A stretch of DNA of 54,026 bases from assembly GCA_041389825.1 (NCBI GenBank), contig JAWKRC010000007.1, forward strand, positions 253,093 through 307,118, read 5' to 3'. The position numbers and the translations under genes are program-made. The stretch comes from Polyangiales bacterium (GTDB taxonomy: Bacteria > Myxococcota_A > Polyangia > Polyangiales > Ga0077539). Positions within the stretch are counted from its first letter, which is position 1; every line of letters begins with the position of its first letter. Under the pieces are notes generated by a model. It saw nothing but the letters and a program-made list of their open reading frames with translations. It was not told the origin of the DNA and did not search any database. This document shows, one piece after another, positions 8,383-51,098 of this stretch.

Positions 8383-9874
8383 TCACTCTGCGAGGAGGGC
8401 CACGATGAACTCGCCGACCCGCGGCCGACCCGCGGAGACGTAGGTGTCGAGGGAGAAGTAGTGCGTCCCAGGGCCGAGGTTCACGCGGACGGAGCGGTCG
8501 TCGCGGGCGACGCACGCGGCCCCCGTCGCCGCGCCCGTGAGCGCGTGGATGTCGACGTCGACACCGGGCCGTGAGACCACCACGGCGCGCACCGTCGTCG
8601 CGCGGGTGAGCGCGAGCCGGTAGAGGAACTCCGGCCCCGACTCGTCGGCGCTCGACGCGCAGCCGGGGTAGCGGTCGACGCGCGAGAACCCGCCGCGCGA
8701 GGTGTCTCTCACGTCGACGAAGGGCAGCGACGGGACCTCGATGGGAGCGGCGAGCGAGCCGTCGCCCTGCATCCGAGGGGCGCTCGGGTCGGGCGCGGCC
8801 CCGCCCCGCGCGGTGACCGCGAGCGCGCGGTCGAGGCTCTGGATCGTGAGCAGGTTGCGGACGTTGTGCCCGTAGCGCAGCCCCGCCGCGGAGAACACGC
8901 AGCCGCGCGCCGCGCCGCCCGCGGTGTAGACGTTGAGGTGGATCCCGTCGGCGCCGACGCCGTGCGAGGGGAGCCCCACGAGCTCGCGGTGCAGGTCGAT
9001 GAAGGGCACGCCGCGGGACTGGGCCACGGCGCGCGAGACGGCGTTGTAGCGGTCGACCCACGCGTCGGCCGCGGGGTCGTCGTCGCGCGGAGGCACGGCC
9101 GTGAGGTGCGGGATCACGCCCCGCGCGAGGAGCCGGTCGACGATGGTGAGGAGGTTGTCTCCGTAGCGGTCGAGGTTCCGCGACTGGATGTCGTTGGTGC
9201 CGAACATCACCGTGGCGTGCGTGGGCCGCGCGGCGTCGAGCTCGCGGTCGAGGGGCGGAGGCGTCCCCGAGAGCGCCGCCCACGCGCTCCACCCCACGGT
9301 CGCGGCGAGGCTCACCCTGCGGTACGGGTCCGTCCCCCGGCGTCGCCCGCGCGGAACCAGTCGACCGTCGCGCGCAGCGCGTCGCGCCCGCGAGGTCGAC
9401 CAAGCCGCCCGCGAAGCAGGCCGCGAAGTTCGTGTTCACCGTGTTCGAGGCACCCACCTTCGAGAACACCCGCGCCTGCCCCGGCGAGCCCGCGAGCACC
9501 GCCCGCCACCGACGCGCGAGGTCCTCGGTGATCGGCGAGAGCGCGCGGTCGGCCGTGTACAGCACCGTCCCCGTCTCGGTCGGCGCGTCGGCCACCGCGT
9601 CGCCGCCGTCGACCCCCGCGTCCCGGCCCGCGTCCCGGCCCGCGTCCCAGCCCGCGTCCGGCGCGCTGTCCGTCGCGTCTGCGCGATCGTCGCCCGCGAC
9701 GTCGCGCATCACGTCTGTCCCCGCGTCGGCCTCGGGCCGGTCCACGGCGCCGAGGTCCACCGCGATCGAGGCGTCGTCCTCCGCGCCCGCCTCCACGTCG
9801 AGCGCCTCCTCGTGCGGCGACGCGCCGCACGCCGCGAGCGTCAGAGCCGCGAACATCGTCCACCGCGCGATCAC
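8383..9874 (-). CDS. SGNH/GDSL-type hydrolase lipoprotein, apparently frameshifted near 9315-9376
   Basis: In frame A the N-terminal part (9874 down to about 9376) reads MFAALTLAACGASP, a lipoprotein signal, then a DAGRDAG repeat linker, then ...KVGASNTVNTNFAA. In frame B the C-terminal part (9315 down to 8383) carries SGNH block III (MFGTNDI) and block V (DGIHLN). The two ORFs overlap and need a 1-nt shift to join. Confidence 0.5.
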
Positions 9875-14707: not shown

Positions 14708-15657
14708 ATGCTCCGCCGCGCACGCTCCGCGACCGTCGTCTTCGCACTCGCCCTCGCCGCGTCGTCGGGGTGCAGCCGCGAGCGGAGCCCGTCGCGCCCC
14801 GCGATGAGCCCGGTGCTCGCCGCGTCCCCTGCCCTCGATCGGCGCGCCGCGAACGAGGAGCTCGTCGACCTCGCCGCCGATGGGCGCGCGCTCGTCGCGC
14901 GTGAGCTCCCCGCGCCGGAGAACAGCGACGCCGACCGGGTGATCGCCGCGCGCGTGCTCCCGCCCGACGCGCAAGGAGAGGTGACCGCGCTCGGAGACGT
15001 GCTCGACGCGCGCTTCATCCCGAGCACCCGCGCGCTACTCGTCATCACCCGCGACCACCACCTCGAACGACGCGACGGGACCACGCGCACCGCGATCGAC
15101 GAGCACGTCTTCGGCCCGCTCTCCCTCGACGCCGTCGGCCGCTACGCGGTCTACACCCGCGGAGAGGTGCCCGACCTCGCGCTGGCGCGCGTCGACCTCA
15201 CGACGAACCGCGCCGAAGCCGTCGCGCCGACGCTCGTCCCCGCGTGGAGCCCGGCGATCTCTCCCGACGGCGCCGAGGTGGTGGTGGTCGCGAGCATCGA
15301 GGAACGCCCGCGCTCTACCGCGTGCGTCCCGGTGAAGCGCCGCGCCGCTGGGAGACGCCTCCCGACGCCGTGCTCCCCGGCGGAGGCCCCACCGCGCCCG
15401 TGGTCTTCGGCGACACGCTGGTCTTCGAAGACGCCGCGGGCCTGCGCACGCTGGTGATCGACGGCCCCGCGCGCGGCCGAGCGACGTCGATCCCCGGCGC
15501 GTTCCGCCCCGTGGCGCGTCCCAACGGGCGTGGCTTCGTCGCGCAGCGTCGTGACCTCGCGAGCGCGCCCGCGGCCGACCCGACCCAACCCGGGATGGCC
15601 GGCGTCGGAGGCGTGGTCACGTTGCGCCTCGTCGCTCCGGCCGAGGTGACGCGGTGA
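14708..15657 (+). CDS. TolB-like beta-propeller lipoprotein, apparent frameshift near 15300-15315
   Basis: ATG at 14708 gives MLRRARSATVVFALALAASSGC (signal peptide plus lipobox). The propeller-like repeats (YAVYTRGEVPDLALARVDL...WSPAISPDGAEVVVVASIEE) continue in the frame of ORF 15244..15657 (PALYRVRPGEAPRRWE...VVFGDTLVFEDAAGLRTLVIDG) after a 1-nt shift. Confidence 0.5.
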
Positions 15658-20447: not shown

Positions 20448-21053
20448 CTACTCCGCCGCGCTCATCGCGTCGGACACGGCGTTGAAGAAGCGCAGCCTGT
20501 GGTGCGGGCTCATGGGCCCCGCGTGGCGGTACATCACCCGCCCGTCGCGCGAGAGCACCATCACGTAGCTGGTGCTGGGCCTGAAGCGGTACGAGCTCGC
20601 CATCGCGCCCGACCAGTCGATGAGGATCTCGATCCCCTGCTGCCGCGCGATGTCGACCACGGCGTCGCGGGCGTAGCCCCGCGCGGGCCAGAAGTCGTAG
20701 CCGCTCAGGTTCGCGACGGGCACCACCGCCACCGTCGACGAGAGGTCCTGCGCGCGCGCGCGCTCAGAGAGCTCACGCTTGAGCGTGTCGTTCTGCTGGT
20801 TCGAGTCGCGGTCTTCGTACATCAAGATCACCACCCGACCGCGGTAGTCGCTCAGCCTGCGCGTGCGGCCCGAGGTGCCCTCCAGCGAGAAGCCCGGCGC
20901 CCGCGGCGCCTCGGGAGCCACGGGGGCCACCGCCGCCGGAGCCTCGGGCGCGGCGATGGCCACCTCGGGCGCGGGCGGGTCTGCCCGCGCGACGCTCCCC
21001 GCGCTCGCCGCCGCCAACACCCCCCACATCGCCCAGACCGTCTTCCGCATCAC
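20448..21053 (-). CDS. Hypothetical secreted protein (thioredoxin-like fold suspected, no CxxC)
   Basis: Signal peptide MMRKTVWAMWGVLAAASAGSVARA, then an Ala/Pro-rich linker, then a roughly 140-aa globular domain. It is intact, unlike its neighbours. Confidence 0.5.
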   Translation of the reverse strand: MMRKTVWAMWGVLAAASAGSVARADPPAPEVAIAAPEAPAAVAPVAPEAPRAPGFSLEGTSGRTRRLSDYRGRVVILMYEDRDSNQQNDTLKRELSERARAQDLSSTVAVVPVANLSGYDFWPARGYARDAVVDIARQQGIEILIDWSGAMASSYRFRPSTSYVMVLSRDGRVMYRHAGPMSPHHRLRFFNAVSDAMSAAE

Positions 21054-21061
21054 AGCCTCCG

Positions 21062-21989
21062 TTACGCCCTCGACGCGCGCCGCGCCAGCGCCGCCTCGAT
21101 GGCCCCTCGCGCGCCCGCCAGGTCTTCACCGACCACCAGCCCGCCCCGCCGCGTCACCGCTTCGCGCACGCCCGCCGCGCCCGCGCCCCCTACGAACCAC
21201 GGCAGCGCGCCGCACGCGTCGGCGTAGGCGCTCACCATCGCCGCCACGCGCGAGGGCTCCGGCGCGATCACCACCGAGAGGCCCACCGCGTCGGGCTTCA
21301 CGCTCGCGACGGCCTCAGAGAGGGCCGCGGCCGGGGTGCGCGCGCCGAGCTCCACCGTGCGCAGCCCCCACGACGCGAGCCGCAGCGCCGCGCCGTAGAG
21401 CCCGATGACGTGCTCCTCGTCTTCGACGCAGGCGAGGAGCACCACGGGCGCAGGCGGAGAAGGCCGGCTGCACCAACCGCGCGAGGGTGCGCACCGGGGC
21501 CATCACGCGCCGCTCGTGAGGTGCTCCTGCGCGACGGAGATCGCCCCCGCGTGCCAGAGGTCGCCCACTTCGCGCAGCAGCCGGCGCGAGCACGTGCTCG
21601 AACACCGCCGCGGCGGAGCCGGGTACGCCGTCTGCGCCACCTCGCGCTCGATCGCCGCGGGGTCGAAGCTCTGCGCGGCGTCGACGATGCGCGTAGGCGC
21701 GCGAGGTCCAGGCGTCTTCGCCCTCGGTGACCTCAGCGGGCGCCTCGTGGTCGCCCTGGTCCTTCACCACCCGCGCGGCCTCGGCGATGGCGACCCCGCG
21801 CGCGCACAGGTCACTTGGAGGCTGCTGCACCATCCGCACGTCGGACTCGGAGTAGAGCCGGTAGGCCGACGCCGTGCGGGTAAAAGCGCGGGGATGCCGT
21901 AGCGCCGCTCCCACGCGCGGAGCGTCGGCGCGGGCACCCCGTGAGCCGGCCACGACGTTGATGCGGTACCGACCCGCCGACTCGCTCAT
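21062..21989 (-). pseudogene. CarH/LitR-like MerR-family regulator with C-terminal cobalamin-binding domain, disrupted by at least 2 frameshifts
   Basis: ORF 21315..22037 begins with a MerR-type HTH remnant (YRINVVA...AFTRTASAYRLYSESDVRMVQQ). A different frame, ORF 21062..21445, encodes a B12-binding domain (VEDEEHVIGLYGAAL = DxHxxG, ...LSVV..., ...FVGGAG). It is divergent from crtI. Confidence 0.5.
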
Positions 21990-22066
21990 ACCCCGGGACT
22001 GTATCAGCTCTGCCTCAAGCGCAAAAGGTTTGTTCAACCTTCGACTTGGGGTAGAACCTCGGCCCG
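21990..22066. promoter_or_regulatory. Divergent intergenic region between the carH-like regulator and crtI (candidate light/B12-regulated promoter-operator)
   Basis: This is the only AT-enriched stretch in the area (gcaaaaggtttgttcaaccttcgacttggggtagaacc). The call rests on position alone. Confidence 0.3.
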
Positions 22067-23530
22067 ATGAGCACGGATCGACGGCGTCACGCGGTGGTGA
22101 TCGGCAGCGGCTTCGGTGGACTGGCGGCCGCGGTGCGCCTGGGGGCGCGCGGGTGGCGGGTGACGGTGCTGGAGAAGAACGACCAGCCCGGCGGGCGGGC
22201 GCGGGTGTTCCGCGACCAGGGCTTCACCTTCGACGCGGGGCCGACGGTGGTGACGGCGCCCTTTCTCTTCGAGGAGCTGTGGTCGCTCTGCGGCAAGAAG
22301 ATGAGCGACGACATCGACTGACGCCCTTCTACCGGATCCGCTTCGGCGACGGCGCAGTGTTCGACTACACGGGCGACGCGGCGGCCATGCAGAGGGAGGT
22401 GGCGAAGCTCTCTCCCGGCGACGTCGGCGACTACGAAGCGCTTCGTCGAGATGAGCAGCGCCGGATCTTCAGGTCAACTTCGAGGCCCTCGCGCACGTCC
22501 CCGTTCGGCACGTGGGGCTCGATGCTGAAGATCGCACCCGACATGGTGACTCGAGAGCTACCGCACGGTCCTACGAGCTCGTCGCGAAGTTCGTGAAGGA
22601 CGAGCGGCTGCGGCAGGTGATGTCGTTCCACCCGCTGCTGGTGGGCGGCAACCCCACTTCGACCACGTCGATCTACACACGCTCATCGCGTTCCTTGAGC
22701 GCAAGTGGGGCGATGCACTTTCCGATGGGCGGAACGGGCGCGCTGGTGAACGGCACTCTGAAGCTCATCGAGGGCCACGGCGTGCGCTTGAACGCTGGTG
22801 CAGCGCATCCTCGTCGAGGGCAAGCGCGCGGTGGGCGTCGAGCTTCGCCGACGGCTTGAGACGATCCCGCGCCGACGCGGTGGTCTCGAACGCCGACTCG
22901 GCGTGGACCTACCGCTACCTCGTCGACCCCGCCCACCGCGCGCGTGGCCCGACTGGCGCATCGAGCGCTCGCGGTACTCGATGTCGCTCTTCGTCTGGTA
23001 CTTCGGCACGAAGCGCAAGTACGAGGACGTGGCGCACCACACGATCCTGCTCGGGCCCCGCTACCAGGCTCCTCCACGACATCTTCGAGCGGAAGGTGCT
23101 CGCCGACGACTACTCGCTCTACCTGCACCACCGACCGCGACCGACCCGTCGCTCGCGCCCGAGAACTGCGACGCGTTCGACGTGCTCTCGCCGGTGCCGC
23201 ACCTCGACTCGGGCGTCGACTGGCGCGTGAAGGCCGAGCCCTACCGCAAGGCCGTGGAGCGCTACCTCTCGCGCACGGTGATGCCGGGCCTCGCCGACGG
23301 GGATCGTCACGTCGCGGATGCTCACGCCGCGGGGTTCCACGACGACCTGCTCTCGATCAAGGCGCGGCCTTCGGGATGGAGCCGGTGCTCACGCGAGCGC
23401 GTTTCTTCCGACCGCACAACAAGAGCGAAGACATCGAGGGCTGTACCTCGTGGGCGCAGGCACGCACCCCAGCGCAGGGGGATGCCCGGCGTGCTCGTCG
23501 GCGCGCGTGCTCGACTTACGGTCCTGCCGT
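22067..23530 (+). pseudogene. crtI: Phytoene desaturase (CrtI family), interrupted by many (6 or more) single-base frameshifts
   Basis: The N-terminus MSTDRRRHAVVIGSGFGGLAAAVRL (FAD Rossmann) is in ORF 22067..22321. Later CrtI blocks are in other frames: RLTPFYRIRFGDGAVFDY; RLRQVMSFHPLLVGGNP.TSTTSIYT; FPMGGTGALVNG; WRIERSRYSMSLFVWYFG; DDYSLYLH; SPVPHLDSGVDW; YLSRTVMPGLADG; GLYLVGAGTHP. The shifts coincide with G/C homopolymer runs. Confidence 0.6.
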
Positions 23531-24465
23531 GACCTACGAGGCCGACGTCGCGGAGTGCCGCGAGCGCCTTCGCACGGGCTCCTGTCGCTCGATTCTACGC
23601 GGCGTCGCTGGTGCTCCCCGAGCGGGTGCGGGCGCCCGCGTCGGCCTTCTACGCCTTCTGCCGCGTGGCCGACGACGCGGTCGACGAAGCGCCTCCCGGC
23701 GGGATGAACGACGCCGTGACGGCGTTGCGCGCGCGGCTCGCGAGGATCTACGGCGACGCGCCCGACGACACGCCCATCGACCGCGCGCTCGCGGTGGCGG
23801 TGCGACGTCACGGCGTGCCGAGCGCGGTGATCGAGGCCCTCATCGACGGCTTCCTCTGGGACGCCGAGGGACGTCGCTACGAGACGATGGCGGAGCTGCA
23901 CGGCTACTGCGCGCGCGTCGCGTCGGCGGTGGGCGTGGTGATGACCCTCTTCATGGGCCGACGTCACCCGAAGGTGCTCGCCCGCGCCTGCGACCTCGGC
24001 GCGGCGATGCAGCTCACCAACATCTGCCGCGACGTGGGCGAAGACGCGCGCAACGGCCGCGTGTACCTCCCGCTCGCGTGGATGCGCGACGCCGGGATCG
24101 ACGTCGAGACCTGGGAGCGCTCCCCTCGCCCCACCGACGCCCTCGCCGCGGTGATCGAGCGCGTGCTGGTCGAGGCCGACGGGCTGTACGCGCGCTCCGA
24201 CGCGGGGGTGCCGATGCTGCCGCGCGACTGCCGCGCGTCGATCCGCGCGGCGCGGCTGCTCTACAGCGCGATCGGAGACGAGGTGCGCGACAACGGCTAC
24301 GACAGCGTCACGCGGCGCGCGGTGGTGCCGCGACGTCGCAAGGCGCTGCTGCTCGCGCGCGCGATGACCGCGATGCTGGAGCCCGACCGGTCTCCGCGCG
24401 ACGACGACCCGCCCGCGCTGCACGCGGTGCAGTTCCTCATCGACGCGGTGCGCGCGTCAGGGTGA
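23529..24465 (+). CDS. crtB: Phytoene synthase (CrtB family); the 5' end carries one apparent frameshift
   Basis: The intact ORF 23611..24465 reads LPERVRAPASAFYAFCRVADDAVDE ... YCARVASAVGVVM ... NICRDVGEDARNGRVYLP. The upstream frame reads ...YEADVAECRERLRTGS(C)RS then a shift, then FYAASLVLPERV. This places the true start near a GTG at about 23529. Confidence 0.7.
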
Positions 24466-25023
24466 GGCGCGGAGCGCCTCGATAGGCGTGGTGCCCTCGG
24501 TGAGCGTACCGTCGTTCGAGGCCTGATCGCCCGTGACCGACGCGCGCCACGCGAGCCTGCGTTGACCGTCGCGGACGTAGACGAAGAACACCCACTCACC
24601 CGCGGTCGGCGCCTGTATCCCGGGCGGTGGGAGGGCTTCAGAGACGCGGTAGTCCGTCGGGCACCCTCGCGCGTCGACCACGCGTTGCGGTTCGTTCGTC
24701 CCGTTGAAGGCCACGTCGCCCGTGAGGCCAGAGCCGAGCGCGTCGACCACGCGCACCGTGACCTCGACCCGCGGCGTCACCAACGTCTCGGCGGAGCCGG
24801 GGACGACCGGCGCGAGCTGCGGAGCGACGACGCGCGTCTCGACCACCACACCACGAAACACCACGCCCCCCGCACCGCGGACCTCACCCGCGAGCGACAC
24901 GAGGTCGACCGGTGAGGCGTAGGAGGCTGCTCCAGAGCGCACCAGGCTCTCGTCGCAGAAGCCCGACTCGCCGCCGCACCCCGTCGTAACGAGGGCGAAC
25001 CCCAACACCCATGAACGAAGCAT
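24457..25023 (-). CDS. Hypothetical lipoprotein
   Basis: MLRSWVLGFALVTTGCGG is a signal peptide plus lipobox. 188 aa, no recognisable domain. Confidence 0.5.
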   Translation of the reverse strand: MLRSWVLGFALVTTGCGGESGFCDESLVRSGAASYASPVDLVSLAGEVRGAGGVVFRGVVVETRVVAPQLAPVVPGSAETLVTPRVEVTVRVVDALGSGLTGDVAFNGTNEPQRVVDARGCPTDYRVSEALPPPGIQAPTAGEWVFFVYVRDGQRRLAWRASVTGDQASNDGTLTEGTTPIEALRASP

Positions 25024-25041
25024 GGGAGCGAGGCTACACCC

Positions 25042-25985: not shown

Positions 25986-27146
25986 CTACACCTCGGCGGC
26001 GCGCTCGGCCTCTTCGGCCTCCTTCGCGCGGCGCTCCAGCACGTCGGTGCCAGGAACCGAACACGGCTGCAGCCCCCGACGAACATGCACAGGAACAGCG
26101 CCAGCACCCGCCAGCACACGAGGTACTGGATCCGTACGCCTCGGCACCCACGGAGACATCAGCGCCGACGAGCCGGCCTCTGCGATGCCCGAGGCGCCCG
26201 GCGTGGGCGAGAGGTACAGCGCGAAGTTCAACAGCGTCTGCACCAGGATCACCTTGAGGATGTCGGGCCCCACGGTGACGAAGCCCCGCGGCGTGGTCGA
26301 GAGCCCGAGGCCCAGGAGGATGAAATACGCGACGCAGAAGCGCGCCCAGAAGAAGCCCACGGTGAGCGCGAAGGCCGTCGCCACCGCGGCCTTGCCGCGC
26401 GAGAGGTAGACCTTGAAGCCCGCGTTCACCCGGTCGACGAAGTGGATCAAGCCCTGCGAGATCTTGCCGGGCTTGAGGCCCTCCTTCTCGCGGAGTCGTC
26501 GGGCGATGGGCAGGCGCGAGACCACCCCGAGCGCGCCGTGCCAGATCGGCCCCAGCGCCCGCGCCGCGTAGCGGAACACCGCCTTCAGCATCGGCGGGTG
26601 CAACACGCTCAACAGCAGCATCACGAAGCACGCGCCGAAGACCAGCGTGCTGACCGCGACGAGCACGTCGAGCGCCTCGGCGCCGGGCACGTTCAGCTCC
26701 CCCCGCGCGCGGAGCACCAGCAGCAGCACCGCCGACGAGAGGAAGAACACGATGGTGCAGAAGGCCGTGAGGAGCTCGGCCGTCGCGATGTCGGCGAAGG
26801 GCATCCCGCCTTCGACGAGGGTGGCGACCTGCGCGACGGGCGCGCCGAGCTGACCGGGCGTGATGCCCGCGACGAACATCAGCACGAACTCCGACGCCAC
26901 CGCGGTGCGGAGCTTGAGCTGCGGGCAGAGGACGCGGCCGAGCACGAACATCCGCAGTCCGCCGCAGACGCCCTCTTGCAGCGCGAAGGCCGCCGCGAGG
27001 AGGAGCCACAGCGGGCGCGCGGTGGTGAGCGCCACGCCGAGCTCGGCGCGCTGCACGGCGACCGCGCGGTACACGAAGACCGTGAAGGTCACCAGGGTGA
27101 TCGCGACGATGAGCTGGATGCCGCGGACGAGCGTGGCGCGGTTCAC
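25986..27146 (-). CDS. Polytopic membrane protein of the UPF0104 / lysyl-PG-synthase-TM (flippase-like) family
   Basis: 386 aa with about 8 TM helices. Its composition is typical of the LPG_synthase_TM domain (TIGR00374-like). The C-terminal 60 aa may be over-extended. Confidence 0.55.
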   Translation of the reverse strand: MNRATLVRGIQLIVAITLVTFTVFVYRAVAVQRAELGVALTTARPLWLLLAAAFALQEGVCGGLRMFVLGRVLCPQLKLRTAVASEFVLMFVAGITPGQLGAPVAQVATLVEGGMPFADIATAELLTAFCTIVFFLSSAVLLLVLRARGELNVPGAEALDVLVAVSTLVFGACFVMLLLSVLHPPMLKAVFRYAARALGPIWHGALGVVSRLPIARRLREKEGLKPGKISQGLIHFVDRVNAGFKVYLSRGKAAVATAFALTVGFFWARFCVAYFILLGLGLSTTPRGFVTVGPDILKVILVQTLLNFALYLSPTPGASGIAEAGSSALMSPWVPRRTDPVPRVLAGAGAVPVHVRRGLQPCSVPGTDVLERRAKEAEEAERAAEV

Positions 27147-29963: not shown

Positions 29964-30006
29964 ACGTGTGGTCCTCGACGGCCGCGGGGTGAGAGACTCC
30001 GCGGCC

Positions 30007-31290
30007 ATGCGCGGGCTCAGCGACTATCAGCGCCGACTGGTGGTCTTCCTCTCGGTGGCGACCTTCTTCGAGGGCTACGACATGCTGGCCCTCACCCAGC
30101 TCCTGCCCAACCTCCGCCGACACTTCGCGCTCTCCGAGTCCGAGGGCGGCGCGATGATCGCCCTCATCAACGTCGGCACCGTGCTCGCGTACTTCCTCGT
30201 GCGCCTCGCCGACCGCTGGGGCCGGCGCCGCGTGCTCTCGGTCACCATCGCGGGCTACACCGTGATGTCCTTCCTCTCGGCGCTCGCGCCCAACGCCGTG
30301 GTCTTCGCCCTCGCGCAGCTCTGCGCGCGGGTCTTCCTCATCGGCGAGTGGGCCGTCGCGATGGTCGTCGCCGCCGAGGAGTTCCCCGCCGACCGCCGCG
30401 GCACCGTCATCGGGGTCATCCAGGGCTTCTCCTCCCTCGGGGCCATCGTGTGCGCGGGGCTCGTCCCGCTGATGCTCAAGGCCCCCATGGGCTGGCGCAC
30501 GGTCTACATGGTGGGCGCAGTCCCGCTGGTGATCCTCGCGTGGGCGCGGCGCGACCTGCGCGAGACGACGCGCTTCGTGAAGCAGCAGGAGACCCTCGCT
30601 CCCCCGTCGGTGGAGCCCGCCGCCGGAGAGCTCGCCTCGCCCTACCGCCCCGAGCGCGCGGCCGCGACGCGCGACCGGCCGCTCACGGCCATCCTGCGCG
30701 GGCCGTGGCGAAAGCGGGTGTTCGTCCTGAGCGCGGTCTGGTTCTGCACGTACATCTGCACCCAGAACGCCGTGACCTTCTGGAAGGAGTTCGCCGTCCA
30801 CGACCGCGGGCTGACCGACGGCGCGGTGGGGCTCTCGGTGAGCATCGCCGCCCTCGCCTCGATGCCCCTGGTCTTCTACGCCGGCCGCCTCCTCGACCGG
30901 GTGGGTCGACGCGTGGGCGCGGCCGTGATCCTCGGCGCCGCCGCCCTGGGCACCTTCACCTCGTACACGGCCCACGACCGCTGGGCCCTCACGGCCTCGC
31001 TCGTCCTCTCGGTCTTCGGCGCGAGCGCGGTGCTCTCGCTCCTGAACGCCTACACCACCGAGCTCTTCCCCACCGACCAGCGCGGAGACGCCTTCGCCTG
31101 GTCGAACAACCTCCTCGGGCGCCTCGGGTACGTGCTCTCTCCCCTCGCCCTCGGGTTCGCCGCGCAGCGGGTCGGCTGGGGCGCCGCCGTCGCCCCCACG
31201 GCCGTCTTCGCCCTCGTCGCCCTCGGCATCGTCTGGGTCGCCCTGCCCGAGACCCGCGGCCGGGAGCTCGAAGACACCGCGCGGCTCTGA
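30007..31290 (+). CDS. MFS transporter
   Basis: 12 predicted TM helices and the MFS motif RLADRWGRRRVL after TM2. ATG at codon 14 of ORF 29968..31290. Confidence 0.8.
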   Translation: MRGLSDYQRRLVVFLSVATFFEGYDMLALTQLLPNLRRHFALSESEGGAMIALINVGTVLAYFLVRLADRWGRRRVLSVTIAGYTVMSFLSALAPNAVVFALAQLCARVFLIGEWAVAMVVAAEEFPADRRGTVIGVIQGFSSLGAIVCAGLVPLMLKAPMGWRTVYMVGAVPLVILAWARRDLRETTRFVKQQETLAPPSVEPAAGELASPYRPERAAATRDRPLTAILRGPWRKRVFVLSAVWFCTYICTQNAVTFWKEFAVHDRGLTDGAVGLSVSIAALASMPLVFYAGRLLDRVGRRVGAAVILGAAALGTFTSYTAHDRWALTASLVLSVFGASAVLSLLNAYTTELFPTDQRGDAFAWSNNLLGRLGYVLSPLALGFAAQRVGWGAAVAPTAVFALVALGIVWVALPETRGRELEDTARL

Positions 31291-31336: not shown

Positions 31337-32180
31337 GTGGCGACGGCGCAGCCCAGCACCATCATCCCTGGGGAGTACATCGAGGCGATCAGCGGCCTCG
31401 ACCTCGCGGGGTACTCCGTCGAGGGCGTGCTCGGGCGCGGCGGCGTCGGGGTGGTCTTCGCGGCGACGCACGAGGGCGCGCCCGTCGCGGTGAAGCTCGC
31501 GTGGCCCTGGCCCTCGCGCGACGAGGGCTTTTCACCCCGAGCGCACGCGCCACCGGCCTGCGTCATGCGGCCTGAGCGGCGACCAGCGGGCGCTCAAGTG
31601 CATCGCGCCCGTCGACCTGCCCGTGTGCAACCGCGCGGTGAAGGGCGAGGCCGTGCGGCTCGGAGAGGTCAGCCACGGCGCGGTGGTGAAGCTCGTCGCG
31701 CGCTTCGCGGTCACGACGGCCGCGCGGCCTACGCGACCGAGCGCTTCGACGGAGAGGCGCTCCGCTCAAGCCAGGCCCGGCGCTCACAAGCTCAGCGCAG
31801 GCGATCCAGGCTGCACGACCGCGACTGGCGCACGGCGACCTCAAGCTTGCGAGAACGCGCGCAGGTGAACGACGAGGCGAGCTCAGGCTCATCGACTGCT
31901 GCCCATCGGCCTTGCGAGCTCCTGACCCCGGCGTGGAACCTGAACTTCCTCGTCGACGCCGCTGGTCGACAGCGCCGACCCGCGCGCGACCGGAGGATGG
32001 TCTTCCGCCACCGCGACCTCGTGGCCCTGCTCCTTGGCCTGCGAGGCCTTCACCGGCGAGCGGCCGTGGTGCACCCCGAGGTCGCCGGATGCTTTCCGGG
32101 CAGATTTCCGACCGAGCTGAAGCGCCAGACCCTGCACACCGCGCTGAGCGGTCGACAGCGCTCTGTCGAAGCTCCCTGAG
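31337..32180 (+). pseudogene. Ser/Thr protein kinase-like gene, fragmented by frameshifts
   Basis: A Gly-rich loop plus VAIK-like motif (VLGRGGVGVVFAATHEGAPVAVKL) is in ORF 31337. An alphaC/beta4-like segment (GEAVRLGEVSHGAVVKLVARF) is in the frame of ORF 31623..31868. An HRDL remnant also occurs further downstream within ORF 31337..32179. Confidence 0.35.
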
Positions 32181-32391
32181 GTGCTGCGGCCCTTCGTAAG
32201 CCTCGCGCTCGACCCAGGCTCTGGCCCGACGAGGTCAACGTCTTCGGCGTACCTCCAGGCGCGGCCCTTCGAGGTCCGCTGCGACGCGCTCGCGACCCTC
32301 GACGTGGGCGAGCTCTTCGCGAAGCCTGCGGCTAGGGGTCCGACGACCCGCGCGTCTGTGACGCGACGTGGTGTAGAACTCGCACCGCCCG

Positions 32392-35300
32392 ATGCACCGG
32401 TTGTCCTCGACCGCCGCCGCTCCGTGGCTCCTGCGCGCGCTGCTGGCGGCGGTGCCCGACTTCTTCGGCGCCAACGCCGGGCGCAACTGGGACTTCACCG
32501 TCGACGACGCAGGATCTCGTGCTTCGCCCCTGCGCAACCTCTGGGCGGGCCGGCTCGTGCTCACCCCCGGCGCCGAGCGCGTCGAGGCCGCGACGAACCT
32601 CTTGTGGGTGCTGCTGCTCAGCCCCGCCGACGCGCTGGGCGTCTCGCACGAGCTGCTCTCGAAGGTGCTCGGCCTCGCCCTCGCGTCGCTCGCGCTCGCG
32701 GCCGTCGCGCTCTTCCCCTCGGTGGCCTACCGGCGCGAGCCCCGGTACTACGACCTCGTCGCGCCCCTGTGCGCCGCCACCTTCGCGCTGGCATACCTGG
32801 ACCGTCTCGGGCCTCGAGAACGGGCTCTTCCAGTTCCTCGCGGCGAGCTCGGTGGTGCTGCTCGCGTGGGAGGAGCACGCCCCGACGCGGGTGCCGTGGT
32901 CGTCGGTCACGCTGGGCCTGCTCTTCGCGACGCGCCCCGACGGCGGGCTCTACGCCGCCGCCATCGGCTGCGCGAAGCTGATGCGCGCGAGCTCGACGGG
33001 CGTGCGACGTCAAGACGTCGCCTGGGGCTTCACCCTCGGCGCGATGGCCGGCGCGCTGGAGCTCTTCCGCCTCGCGTACTTCGCCTGGCCCTTCCCCAAC
33101 AGCTTCTACACGAAGAAGCGCACCTTCGAGTTCGGCAAGGACCTCACCAAGTTCGACTCCGCAGGGGTGGACATACGTCCGCCGAACAATGCGCCTACAA
33201 AAGCTCGAAGCGCGCCGCCGTCGCGCCCGCGCTGCTCCTCGCCTTCCGCGCCCCGGTGGCCCGCGTGGGGCTCCTCCTCTGTCGCGGGCGTGTTCCTCCC
33301 GGTCTCGCGGCGACTGGATGGAAGGAGTGGCGCTTCCTCACCTACCTTGCCCTGTCTTCACCTGGGCGTCGCCGAGGCCGCGCGCGCCCTGCGCGCTTCC
33401 CCTCGCGCTCGCGCCAGCGAGCCAGCCGTGCTCGCCCTCGCGCTCACCCCACGTCGCCGCGTACTTCGTCGTCGCCGAGACGACCCGCGCGTACCCCACG
33501 CGCTACCCGCGCTGCGCTCGCTGCAGCACCTGGAGTTCTCCGTCGTCCGCGAGCGCGCGCTACTTCGCCGCCGCGGCGCGCGTGCTCGACGTGACCGACG
33601 GCTCGGTGGTCGACCCCGACGTCGGGGGAATGTCCTACGACTCGGGCCTGCGCGTCATCGACCTCTTCGGCCTCGGCGACGTCGCCGTCGCGCACACGCA
33701 CCCGGTCGACGAGCCCGGGCTGCGCGAGGCCCTCTTCGGCGAGCGACGTCCGACCTTCGTCCACCTGCACGGCGCCTGGTACGCCGCGGTGATGCTCGAA
33801 CGGCTCGAGGAGCTCGACGGGCTGTACCTCCGCCTGCCGGGCACCATCGGCGGCGAGCACGACGACGGCTCGAACTACGTCCGCCGCGAAGCCCTCGCCG
33901 CCCCGTGGACCGAAGAGGCCGAGGCCGCGCCGCCGCTCTCCAGGCGCGGCCGCCCGTGCGCGTCGACGGCTTCACACCGTGTCAGCGCGCGGCGTCGACC
34001 GGCTTGAGTCGGTCTACGTCGAGCTCGCCTTCGCGGGCCACGACGGCGTCGCCATCCGGCAGCGTCGTGGCGATCCTGAGGCCCCGGCGCCCGCGCGAGC
34101 GCGCCCGCGACCATGGCCGGCAGGCTCTTCGGCCCCGCGACCTTCCTCGAGGAGAGCGCCCGTGGGGCCGCGTGCGGCTCACGTGCTCGCGCCGGGCCGC
34201 TACGAGCTCCGCTGGCGCAGCGACGAGGTCGAGGTCCCCCTCGGCGCCGTGTACGTCGGCGGCACGGCGCCCCGCGTACACCCGCGACGCCCGCGCGCGC
34301 GTCACCGCGCTCCTTCGCGAGGCGGATGCGTGACGCCGCTGCGTCGCGCTCCTTCCGCCTCGCCGCCGAAGAGGGCGCCGCCGACGCCGACGCGACCGGG
34401 CCCTCGCGATGTACGCGCGCGCCCTCGCGGGCCGCGCGCTGCGCCTGGGCGAGCACGGGCTCTACCGCCTCGCCGCGCAGACCTGCAGGCCGAGAATCGC
34501 AACGCTTCAGCCGAGACGACGCCCGCGCCCGATCGCTGGTGCAGCGCCTCGCCGAGCGCCTCGCCCGACGCCTACGCGCGGCGGAGCGCGCCCACGACGT
34601 CGCGCGGGCCTGCGACCTCGCCCGCGACGCGGTGCTCCTCGACCCCCGACGGAGCTGGATGCGCCGCCGCGCGGAGGAGCTTCGCCCGCTGCGTCGCAGC
34701 GAGTACGACGGCGGCCGGGAGCTCGCGGGCTACCGCTTCGCCGCGAGCGCGGCGGCGAGCGCGACCGCCGAGACGCCGACGCCCGCGTCGCTCGACGACG
34801 CGGCGGTGTTCATGATGACCCTGGGCCGCGGCGCCGAAGCGGTGGCGCTCCTCGACCGCGCGCGGCGTGTGCCCGAGTCGCCGTGGGCGCGGGTCGCGGC
34901 GGCGCGCGGTCACCTCATCCGCGGAGAGGTCTCCGAGGCGCGCGCGCTCCTCGCGTCGGTGGCCTGCGACACGGCGCGCGACCCCGAGGTGAACCGCGCG
35001 CTCGCCGAGGTCGACAACGCGCCCGCGCGCCCGACGGACCCGCTCTGCGCGCGCCCGCTCGTGTCGGGGAGCGCGCCCGCGTGGGTGTCTCCGCCGGCGC
35101 CCTTCAACGCCGTCGAGGGCAGCTTCGAGTCGACGCGCTGGCAGGGCTGGACCGCGACGGGCACGGCTTTCGGCGCGGGCCCGATCCACGACACGCCGAC
35201 GAACCAGACCTTCGTGAACGGATGGCGCGGGCAGCGCTACGCGAGCTCCTACGCGGCCAACAACGACGCGGCGACGGGCACGCTCCGCTCGCGGCCGTTC

Positions 35301-38996: not shown

Positions 38997-40348
38997 TCAG
39001 CTGCCCGGGTTGAACGTGAACGGGAAGCTGAAGTCCACGCTCCCGCCCTCGGGCGCCGGGAAGACCAGGCCCCGGATGCGCGACACGACGCAGGAGCCGA
39101 CCTCGGGGGCCTCGGACATGCCCGACGAGCTCGCGCTGGTGATGCGGCCCGAGGTGCCGATGGTGAAGCGCACCTCGACGCGGCCCGAGAGCGTGGGGTT
39201 GTTGCGCAGCGCGCGCTCGTAGCAGCTACGGATGCCGCCGAGCTGACCGCGGATGAGCCGCGCCACGGCGTTCGGGTCGAGGTTGCCCTCGCCGCCGATG
39301 GAGTCGCCGCCGCCGAGGCTCGCGTTGCCGCGGATCACGCGCTCGCGCACGATCTCGCCGCCGCTGCCGATGTTGTTGCCGCCGCCCTGCACGGTGCCCG
39401 ACTGGCCGAGGCCGCGGCCTCCGAGGCCGGCGCCGCCCGCGGAGGCGACGGAGCCGCGGCGCACGCCGCTCTGGCCCGAGGCGGCCGAGATGCCGCCGAC
39501 GTTCTGGAGGTCGCGCTCGGTGCCGGCCATGAGGCCGCCGTTGTTGAGCGCGTCGCGGGCGCTGTTCGAGCTCTCGCCCACGCCGGTGAGGGCCGCGAAC
39601 TCGGCGTTGTTGCTGAGGGCGTTGAGGGCCGCGTCGGCGGCGCGGGTCGCGGCGGCGGCGGCCGCCTCGGCGCGGTTGCCCGCGGCGCGCTCGCGGGCGG
39701 CGGCGGTCTCTCCGCGGAGTGCGAGGGCGTCGGGGCGGCGGCGGGGGCGGCCGCGGCCTCTTGCTGCTCGGAGGGCTCGTTGGTCTGCTCGGGCTCCTGA
39801 GGCTGCGGCTCTTCGGGAGCGGCGGGCTGCGAGAGCAGACGCACGAGGCGGGCGTCGTCGAGGCCCGCGTCGTCGACGATGGGGTCGTAGACGTATTCGA
39901 TGTACGCGACGCTCGCGATCGCCAGCACGAGGAAGAACGAGAAGCAGGCGTTGTAGGTCCAGTCGATGTTCTTGACCCAGCTTAGCGCGGATCGCCGCGG
40001 GGAGCTGCGGCTTGGGCTGCGGCGGGGCGGTACGACGAACTGGAAGAGGAAGGTGACGTCGCCGATCTGGATCTTGCCGCGCGAGCTCTCGGAGAGCGCC
40101 ACCTGCCAGCCCTGCGGGCCCTTGCGGGTGTTCGCGTTCGCGCGGAGATCCGCGAGGGACTTCACCCCGTCGGGCAGGGCGAGCCGCCCGTCCATCTTCT
40201 CGGTGAAGTTCGAGGAGTAGGTGCCCCCCGACATGGTGAAGAGCTCGAAGGAGGGCGGGAGCTCGTTGGCGTTCACCGTGAAGGTGTTGCGCTCGGTGGT
40301 GCCCACGGTCACCGAGTTGCGGTCACGGATGATCCGCTCCTCGGACAT
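38997..40348 (-). CDS. GltG/NfsG (PglI)-like protein: N-terminal FHA-like domain, TM helix, Pro/Glu-rich and Gly-rich linkers, AgmX/PglI TonB-C-like C-terminal domain; apparent frameshift in the low-complexity linker
   Basis: ORF 39335..40348 reads ...GKIQIGDVTFLFQFV (FHA-like end), then the TM helix ACFSFFLVLAIASVAYIEYVY, then a P/E-rich stretch. ORF 38997..39581 reads a G-rich stretch, then RLIRGQLGGIRSCYERALRNNPTLSGRVEVRFTIGTSGRITS...SFPFTF. The two ORFs overlap over 39335-39581. Confidence 0.55.
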
Positions 40349-40547
40349 CTTCGTGCCTGGATGATGCCGATGCGCAGCACCTTGGGCCCCGACGAGACCT
40401 TCGCCGCGGCCATCGCCTGGGTCATCGCCCCGGGGCGCCCGGGGCCGCGTTGTGTCGGTCCTGCCATTCGCTTCCTCCGCACTCTCTTCCCGGCGACCGG
40501 CGCCGGATCATCAACCCTGACACGCGAACCCCTCGCGGGGTTCCCGC

Positions 40548-50222: not shown

Positions 50223-50276
50223 GTTCGTTCGCCCCTTCACGTCCACGACTCCGTCGACGGCTCCGCCGCGAGCCCG

Positions 50277-51098
50277 TTAGGGCTCGGAGCCCGCCGCGGG
50301 GGCGGGCGCGCTGTCGTTTCGCTGGTTCTGCGCCCGCGCCTCGGCGACCGTGGTCACCGACTGCGCGTAGCGGATGGCGGGGCGGTCTTCGACGGCGGTC
50401 GCCGCGCCCCCCTGCTCGTACCCGATCACCGTCAAGCGCAGCGCCCTCCCCTCGGGGACGCTCACGGTCTGCACCGAGCGCGCGCGGAACGTGTACCCGC
50501 GGATGTACGAGAAGATCCCGTTGCCGTTGCCCTGGTACTCCAGGCTGACGGTGACGGAGTGGTCGCCCGACGCGACGCGGCCGTTGAACACGGCGAAGTC
50601 GTGCAGCTCGGCGAGGCTGCCGTTGTCGTCGACGCGCGTCGCGATGGTCGCGCCGTCGAGGCTGTACGTCGCGCGCACGAGGCGGAACGTGCTGCCCATC
50701 TCGTTCTGGTGCTGGATGATGAGCTGCGCGCCGCCGCCGCCCGCGCTGTCGAGCACCATCGCGGTGATCTGCTGCATGCGGGCGTAGGTGCTGCCGATGT
50801 CGTTCGAGAGCGCGGTGACCTCGCGGTCGATGTCGCGGATGGTGATGGACACCGCGCCGGGCGCGACGGCGGAGACGTTTTGCGGCGTCGGCGTCGCGGC
50901 GAGCGCGGGGGCCGGGGCGACGAGGGGCGCCGATACGGGCCCCGTGGGCACCTGCGCGGCGGGCGCGGCCGCGGGGGGCTGCACCATCGCGGGCGGGTCC
51001 GCGGGCTGCGACCACGCGACGGCGGGCGCGGTGAGGAGCGAGAGCGCGGCGGCGGTGCGCCACCAGGAAGAAAGACCGCTTGAAGTGCGAGTGGACAC
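50277..51098 (-). CDS. Secreted beta-rich protein, paralogue of the previous gene (GltA/NfsA-like)
   Basis: GTG start (VVSTRTSSGLSSWWRTAAALSLLTAPAVAWSQP) preceded by a GAGAGG SD-like sequence. The region of ORF 50277..51353 upstream of it is Arg-rich junk. Confidence 0.5.
   Translation of the reverse strand: MSTRTSSGLSSWWRTAAALSLLTAPAVAWSQPADPPAMVQPPAAAPAAQVPTGPVSAPLVAPAPALAATPTPQNVSAVAPGAVSITIRDIDREVTALSNDIGSTYARMQQITAMVLDSAGGGGAQLIIQHQNEMGSTFRLVRATYSLDGATIATRVDDNGSLAELHDFAVFNGRVASGDHSVTVSLEYQGNGNGIFSYIRGYTFRARSVQTVSVPEGRALRLTVIGYEQGGAATAVEDRPAIRYAQSVTTVAEARAQNQRNDSAPAPAAGSEP

Follow-up and report, generated by a model that had tools for sequence, protein, structure and literature searches.

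Frameshifted carH, crtI and crtB genes on a Polyangiales contig: a standard CarH-type carotenoid module in a probable stretch of low-accuracy sequence

Among the described systems closest to the locus considered here is the divergent crtI-carH pair of Sorangium cellulosum (Pcrt-Sc1), for which repression in darkness when B12 is present and induction by light have been demonstrated experimentally (Perez-Castano et al. 2022, PMC9304148). CarH proteins are defined by three motifs, RxWERRY, Wx9EH and D/ExHxxG-x41-SxT/V-x22-27-GG (Perez-Castano et al., PMC9304148), of which Wx9EH, located in the four-helix bundle, separates CarH from the B12-independent CarA, and the CarH operators of Sorangiineae are reported to be plastic, combining one direct repeat with degenerate repeats (PMC9304148). 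Here, we analyze a locus of this type in a stretch of 54,026 nucleotides from a Polyangiales bacterium (contig JAWKRC010000007.1, positions 253,093 to 307,118; hereafter, the window), where a carH-like regulator gene, a crtI gene of the phytoene desaturase family and a crtB gene for phytoene synthase are broken by frameshifts.

Errors in long-read and hybrid assemblies fragment genes, a problem that Kastor (PMC12007338) and Homopolish (PMC8011154), among others, address. Comparison with close relatives leads us to consider it likely that this locus is a standard CarH module and that its frameshifts reflect sharply bounded low-accuracy sequence, not a loss of carotenogenesis; all three genes are probably intact in the organism. 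The damage is not confined to the carotenoid genes, at least two kilobase-scale tracts of this kind being present on the contig.

The window has a composition of about 73% G+C, and its region 21062-24465 carries pieces of three genes, arranged as follows:

21062-21990, minus strand: carH-like regulator with a MerR-type helix-turn-helix, a four-helix-bundle Wx9EH module and a Rossmann B12-binding module, recognized from open reading frame (ORF) fragments, Pfam and intact orthologues
21991-22066, strand not applicable: divergent carH-crtI intergenic region, presumed to hold the promoter and operator, read from the sequence and compared with relatives
22067-23532, plus strand: crtI, recognized from Pfam matches of the N-terminal fragment and an intact 492-aa orthologue
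23529-24465, plus strand: crtB, recognized from Pfam SQS_PSY

In the ORF listing, the pieces of carH are distributed over three reading frames. The N-terminus is found as MSESAGRYRINVVA.. together with TLRAWERRYGIP, the latter in fragment 21764-21937; a middle piece, in ORF 21503-21640, contains LWHAGAISVAQEH; and the C-terminal 127-aa ORF at 21062-21445 matches Pfam B12-binding. All three signatures, RxWERRY, Wx9EH and ExHxxG...SxV...GG, can be recognized in these fragments. From its ATG at 22067, crtI is readable for 84 aa before a stop, and its Pfam matches (NAD_binding_8 and Amino_oxidase; flavin adenine dinucleotide-binding) are limited to this N-terminal fragment. An intact 284-aa ORF of crtB (23611-24465) matches SQS_PSY from profile position 15, with 227 bits against a cutoff of 26. 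The first codons of that gene, VTYEADVAECRERLRTGS.., sit in a different frame: owing to a 4-bp insertion, about 27 codons are out of frame, in the part where relatives carry a GS(K/R)SF motif. The original prediction for this locus, a regulator with a MerR-type helix-turn-helix and a B12-binding domain divergent from crtI-crtB, with intact neighboring genes on either side, is upheld in both respects, the architecture being borne out by ORFs, Pfam matches, motifs and intact relatives.

Close relatives of the window came from two sources. A CrtB scan of species-representative genomes identified a single close locus, on the contig of a metagenome-assembled genome (MAG), with 93% protein identity (L001), and exact-protein look-ups yielded further contigs from separate samples, namely L081 (Logan, SRR11928969), L082 (DRR438468), L163 (ENA ERZ27268836, 16.9 kb) and L165 (SRR13347294). 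The nearest relatives share 93-96% nucleotide identity with the window in the flanks, and all of them are intact. The comparison with orthologous loci that the original prediction had proposed found an intact locus in four close relatives, L081, L001, L163 and L165, whose assemblies are independent. L081 and L163 have uninterrupted carH (306 aa), crtI (492 aa) and crtB (310 aa) genes, as does L001 over the length covered, and the gene order in the former two is that of the window: pth, L25, a secreted redoxin-like protein of about 195 aa, carH, crtI, crtB and an FA_desaturase_2-like gene. In a broader set of 80 genome loci, 21 have carH, crtI and crtB intact in this divergent arrangement; these are all of the Myxococcota type and include those of Sorangium, Enhygromyxa, Plesiocystis and Polyangiales MAGs.

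The intact orthologues also allow the proteins to be assigned to families. The CarH orthologue matches Pfam MerR_1, MerR, B12-binding_2 and B12-binding, and its best NCBIfam model is the CarH repressor NF052513, with 123.8 bits against an equivalog cutoff of 400; because this score falls below the cutoff, we file the regulator as CarH-like and not as an NCBI equivalog. Membership in the CarH type is supported instead by the three signature motifs, each of which was found by regular expression in the L081 orthologue: RxWERRY, which belongs to the recognition helix of the N-terminal winged-helix DNA-binding domain, as RAWERRY, Wx9EH as WHAGEISVAQEH, its window counterpart being the LWHAGAISVAQEH given above, and the cobalamin motif in the form D/ExHxxG/P-x41-SxT/V-x22-27-GG. 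The segment that carries the cobalamin motif falls in the undamaged window ORF 21062-21445, without indels relative to L081. With TIGR02734, for which the cutoff is 238.1, the L081 CrtI reaches 635.5 bits, and the best NCBIfam model of the CrtB orthologue is 15-cis-phytoene synthase, at a score under the equivalog cutoff. Between the lineages of relatives, CarH is far more divergent than its neighbors (amino acid identity between L081 and L001 of 74% for CarH, 96% for CrtI and 92% for CrtB), which suggests that the regulator evolves fast even where it is intact, a tendency noted for 21195-21990 in comparison with L001 and L163.

Three-way polarized alignments placed the damage to the carotenoid genes within a single interval:

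21446-23592, strand not applicable: low-fidelity tract 1, starting inside carH and ending about 20 codons into crtB

The window was aligned to L081 and to L001, with an identical list of 29 indels in both cases, all at 21458-23589; in 27 of these, within a tract of 2147 bp, the length is not a multiple of three. Relative to L081, 8 frameshifting indels interrupt the carH frame (21458-21947, the 3' part at 21062-21445 being undamaged), 18 fall in crtI and 1 in crtB, and the 2 in-frame indels are divided between carH and crtI. Most are 1-4 bp in size, the larger ones being a 10-bp deletion at 22319 in crtI and a 6-bp deletion; the insertion in crtB, at about 23585, shifts the frame after some 18 codons. 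Insertions and deletions are balanced in number (15 and 14) and in total length (+29 and -31 bp). A gap-lenient alignment adds compensating pairs, such as -A/+T at 23395/23402, separated by eight bases, and +2/-2 at 23476/23494, for about 46 events in total. The frame changes counted in the original prediction (at least two in the regulator, at least six in crtI and one in crtB) are therefore valid as lower bounds. Its statement that all of them coincide with G/C homopolymer runs does not hold: a G/C run of three or more is present at 3 of the 29 indels and any run of three or more at 4 of the 29, and several indels are 2-10 bp long and non-repetitive. With only these three indels in G/C runs, homopolymer slippage as the origin is rejected.

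Beyond the limits of tract 1, the pattern changes abruptly. Indels are absent from the adjoining 876 bp of crtB and from the carH 3' end (384 bp), where the indel density of the tract predicts about 11.8 and 5.2, respectively (P ~7e-6 and 6e-3). In approximately 7 kb of flanks, every indel either is a multiple of three or falls between genes. All indels relative to L081 outside the interval are in-frame ones of 9, 12 and 6 bp, intergenic ones, or three 1-bp deletions clustered at 26072-26143. The enrichment of indels in tract 1 is far beyond chance.

Substitutions are distributed in the same manner. Differences between the window and L081 were polarized with L001 or L163 as the outgroup, giving the following counts:

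tract 21446-23592: 121-124 window-specific, 32-33 L081-specific
pth/L25: 17 window-specific, 22 L081-specific
secreted protein: 22 window-specific, 19 L081-specific
carH 3' end: 13 window-specific, 10 L081-specific
rest of crtB: 12 window-specific, 12 L081-specific

Because the flanks are balanced, the excess, about 90 substitutions in the tract, is specific to the window and restricted to one contiguous stretch. Gap columns behave likewise, with 60 window-specific in tract 1 versus 0 for L081. In crtI, the window-specific substitutions are spread flatly over the three codon positions (25/32/34), compared with 0/2/15 in the L081 lineage. The undamaged part of crtB displays the normal third-position bias in both (window-specific 2/2/8, L081-specific 1/1/10), and from 23611 on its divergence is of the purifying-selection type. 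The third-position excess in the tract (34 vs 25 and 32) does not exceed ordinary lineage divergence, which indicates that the underlying allele is as near to L081 as the flanks are. Recombinational import of a divergent or decayed allele was also considered and is unsupported, given that this excess stays within ordinary lineage divergence.

The 160 differences from L081 in tract 1 show near-Poisson spacing (index of dispersion 1.1-1.4; longest clean run, 72 nt) and no bias toward AT, the per-site rates being 3.9% for GC>AT and 5.4% for AT>GC. On the plus strand, purine transitions exceed pyrimidine transitions by 44 to 19 (p=0.002). This skew has the same direction in carH on the minus strand (11:3) and in crtI on the plus strand (33:15), and the asymmetry is therefore not linked to transcription. 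Taken with the balanced insertions and deletions, these features resemble random noise.

A comparable tract lies to the right of the carotenoid locus, in genes unrelated to it:

31529-34322, possibly to about 34486, strand not applicable: low-fidelity tract 2, with 46 small indels relative to L163, 44 of them not multiples of three

Tract 2 affects a kinase-like gene and a membrane-protein gene that are intact in L163 (335 and 656 aa, respectively). Its left edge lies inside the kinase-like gene, about 190 bp in, and its right end at 34322 is a minimum, this being where synteny with L163 stops. Mismatch rates relative to L163 at first and second codon positions are 9-14% in the tract versus 3-6% in fumA and in a gene for a major facilitator superfamily (MFS) transporter. 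Deletions number 32 and insertions 14. In the 5.4 kb that precede the tract, the only indels are an intergenic one of 1 bp and an in-frame insertion of 66 bp. A frame tracker based on codon usage and third-position G+C content (GC3) flagged 31337-34486 as fragmented, both the tracker and the GC3 phase plots being noisy. In addition, kinase motifs are spread over three frames in this region, and four membrane-protein homologues change frame at about 32790, a frameshift seen at the protein level. Pfam searches found no matches in any of the kinase region's three frames, the fragments being too short, and the region was resolved through the DNA alignment to L163. A protein search with the membrane protein of tract 2 returned hits of at most 74% identity and missed the L163 orthologue, so that negatives from that search are weak evidence. 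Elsewhere in the window, large genes (1505, 909, 806 and 547 aa) are uninterrupted, so that the contig as a whole is accurate and its bad patches are discrete.

The original prediction had left two options, a decaying pseudogene cluster or a locally low-quality stretch of the assembly. We favor the latter because the damage forms one contiguous tract with edges inside genes, the untouched parts of those genes are constrained, and a second, similar tract lies in unrelated genes about 8 kb away; this pattern is far better explained by a local assembly stretch of low accuracy than by pseudogene decay in place. Genuine pseudogenisation, in which the lineage lost light-induced carotenogenesis and carH, crtI and the beginning of crtB are decaying under relaxed selection, seems unlikely to us, even though it would explain why no gene of this three-gene functional unit is spared, why the change is specific to one lineage, all close relatives being intact, and why crtI substitutions are flat over codon positions, as they would be without selection. 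A dead operon should decay throughout, but crtB over 876 bp and carH over 384 bp are free of indels and of excess substitutions, and the remainder of crtB retains its third-position bias up to a sharp line. In natural bacterial mutation, deletions outnumber insertions and the per-site rate of GC>AT exceeds that of AT>GC; both biases are missing in tract 1. Furthermore, the equivalent tract in unrelated genes has a left edge that likewise lies inside a gene, and, with baseline divergence in tract 1 equal to that of the flanks, decay would have to be recent and yet dense in indels, at about one indel per three excess substitutions.

A real localized mutational event, either error-prone repair or synthesis scrambling kilobase-scale tracts or recombination with a decayed allele, would account for the sharp intragenic edges and for the presence of several tracts on one contig, and the strand-asymmetric transitions common to oppositely transcribed genes could reflect synthesis of one strand. 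We nevertheless regard such an event as very unlikely: we know of no bacterial process that places a small indel about every 50-75 bp along 2-3 kb, the third-position counts lend no support to import from a divergent lineage, and read error accounts for the same features more simply. That the tracts are real, as several sharply delimited kilobase-scale 'mutation showers' in which small indels and substitutions are densely mixed and the spectrum is that of one strand, and that one of these has just knocked out a CarH-controlled carotenoid module, strikes us as a long shot; if true, it would imply an undescribed process of localized error-prone DNA synthesis in bacteria.

Under the favored explanation, a local defect in sequence accuracy, a gap or weakly supported segment of an otherwise accurate assembly would have been filled with a single error-prone read or a small number of them, or left unpolished. 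The excess of tract 1 over the relatives, about 4% substitutions and 1.5-2% small indels, would then correspond to a quality of about Q12 laid over an L081-like allele, and the one-strand transition bias may stem from a single error-prone read or a few such reads of the same orientation. Several points weigh against this explanation. The 10-bp and 6-bp deletions and the substitution excess of about 4% are high for a polished consensus, and for the origin to be technical, read support in the tracts would have to be very low. The excess of deletions in tract 2 (32 vs 14) is also expected of natural decay. The technical cause is deduced from comparing sequences and not from reads, and no sequence of the same strain was found, either by exact look-ups of five window proteins or by a scan of Joint Genome Institute (JGI) metagenomes, in which nothing was closer than 67%. 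A protein search with CrtB gave one cluster at 90% identity or more, which is the L001/L163 lineage, and no same-strain match.

The divergent intergenic region contains a -10-like TAGAAC (22052-22057) and an inverted repeat, AAGGTT-N5-AACCTT (22025-22041); the repeat overlaps with a -35-like TTGTTC and with one TnnACA half-site on the minus strand. This half-site within the inverted repeat is the only one seen of an operator built from 11-bp repeats at the promoter. A consensus promoter scan of the carH-crtI intergenic region produced no match, and a search for the strict nAnnTnnACAn CarH direct repeat found none in the L081 intergenic region. Since both searches were empty, we can only infer an operator role for this region. 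An element related to the repeat, 'TTGTCAAAGGTT', recurs in Sorangium, Enhygromyxa and Plesiocystis loci (intergenic regions of L011, L012, L029, L036, L044 and L061). We regard the AAGGTT-N5-AACCTT/'TTGTCAAAGGTT' element as a candidate for a CarH operator or a promoter element, one that departs from the strict nAnnTnnACAn repeat.

Several smaller features of the window were noted. A short damaged patch lies between the two large tracts:

26052-26145, strand not applicable: mini-tract of 94 bp at the 3' end of an LPG_synthase_TM gene (25986-27146, minus strand)

Three 1-bp deletions, with a net change of -3, and a cluster of about 12 substitutions make up the mini-tract; each of these changes is specific to the window in comparison with L081, L082 and L163, and the ORF stays open. 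The 66-bp in-frame insertion mentioned above, seen in comparison with L163, is located at 30590 in the MFS transporter gene (29968-31290) and looks like ordinary length variation, in contrast to the indels of the tracts, which are mostly not multiples of three. The frame tracker also gave blips at 1187-1275, 9337-9381, 15342-15647, 39744-39974, 40355-40426 and 50245-50278, short stretches that may represent overlapping genes, noise of the tracker or additional small patches of error. Adjoining the carotenoid locus, between crtB and the FA_desaturase_2-like gene, a 572-bp segment (24469-25038) carries a 188-aa lipoprotein-like ORF (24457-25023, minus strand) without a Pfam match. This segment is present in the window and in L082, is missing from L001, L081, L163 and L165, and is a natural insertion/deletion polymorphism.

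The main value of the analysis is as a caution. Annotation of the contig at face value would record the loss of photoprotective carotenoids, a kinase and a membrane protein. Given close relatives, error tracts can be separated from true pseudogenes without reads, through polarized lineage-specific changes, the position of tract edges relative to gene edges, the distribution of substitutions over codon positions and the ratio of insertions to deletions. With the intact relatives, a further uncultured Myxococcota lineage joins those in which carH is divergent from crtI-crtB.

The type of locus is already known and does not depart from the description given for Sorangiineae (PMC9304148). In the Sorangiineae pair, too, carH is divergent from crtI, which is followed by crtB, and the regulator carries the same signature motifs (RxWERRY; Wx9EH, with His after Trp; ExHxxG-x41-SxV-x26-GG); in our genome scan, the arrangement of the window was shared by the Sorangium loci L011-L013, L015, L019, L020 and L022. 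By analogy with CarH of Thermus, Myxococcus and Sorangium, in the dark, the AdoB12 (adenosylcobalamin)-bound CarH repressor would occupy the divergent carH-crtI promoter region, and light would release CarH, switching on crtI-crtB and starting carotenoid synthesis, a mechanism that we infer from family membership, motifs, gene arrangement and the literature. The differences from Sorangium lie in the sequences: CarH is only 49-52% identical and CrtB 56-63%, the intergenic region of the window shows no clear tandem 11-bp direct repeats, with one TnnACA half-site in an inverted repeat, and the window genes are frameshifted. CarH of Thermus thermophilus (TtCarH/LitR) and of Myxococcus xanthus (carB operon) shares with the window the domain organization, the B12-binding signatures and the linkage of the regulator to carotenoid genes. 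The window type differs in its score below the NF052513 equivalog cutoff, and in M. xanthus carA-carH lies inside a large operon, not in a divergent pair (PMC9304148). Finally, as with the long-read assembly errors treated in the correction literature cited above, frameshifts and premature stops here would mimic pseudogenes and are detected by comparison with close relatives. Such errors are typically genome-wide and enriched in homopolymers, whereas those of the window form kilobase-scale, mostly non-homopolymer tracts that more closely resemble unpolished or single-read fill.

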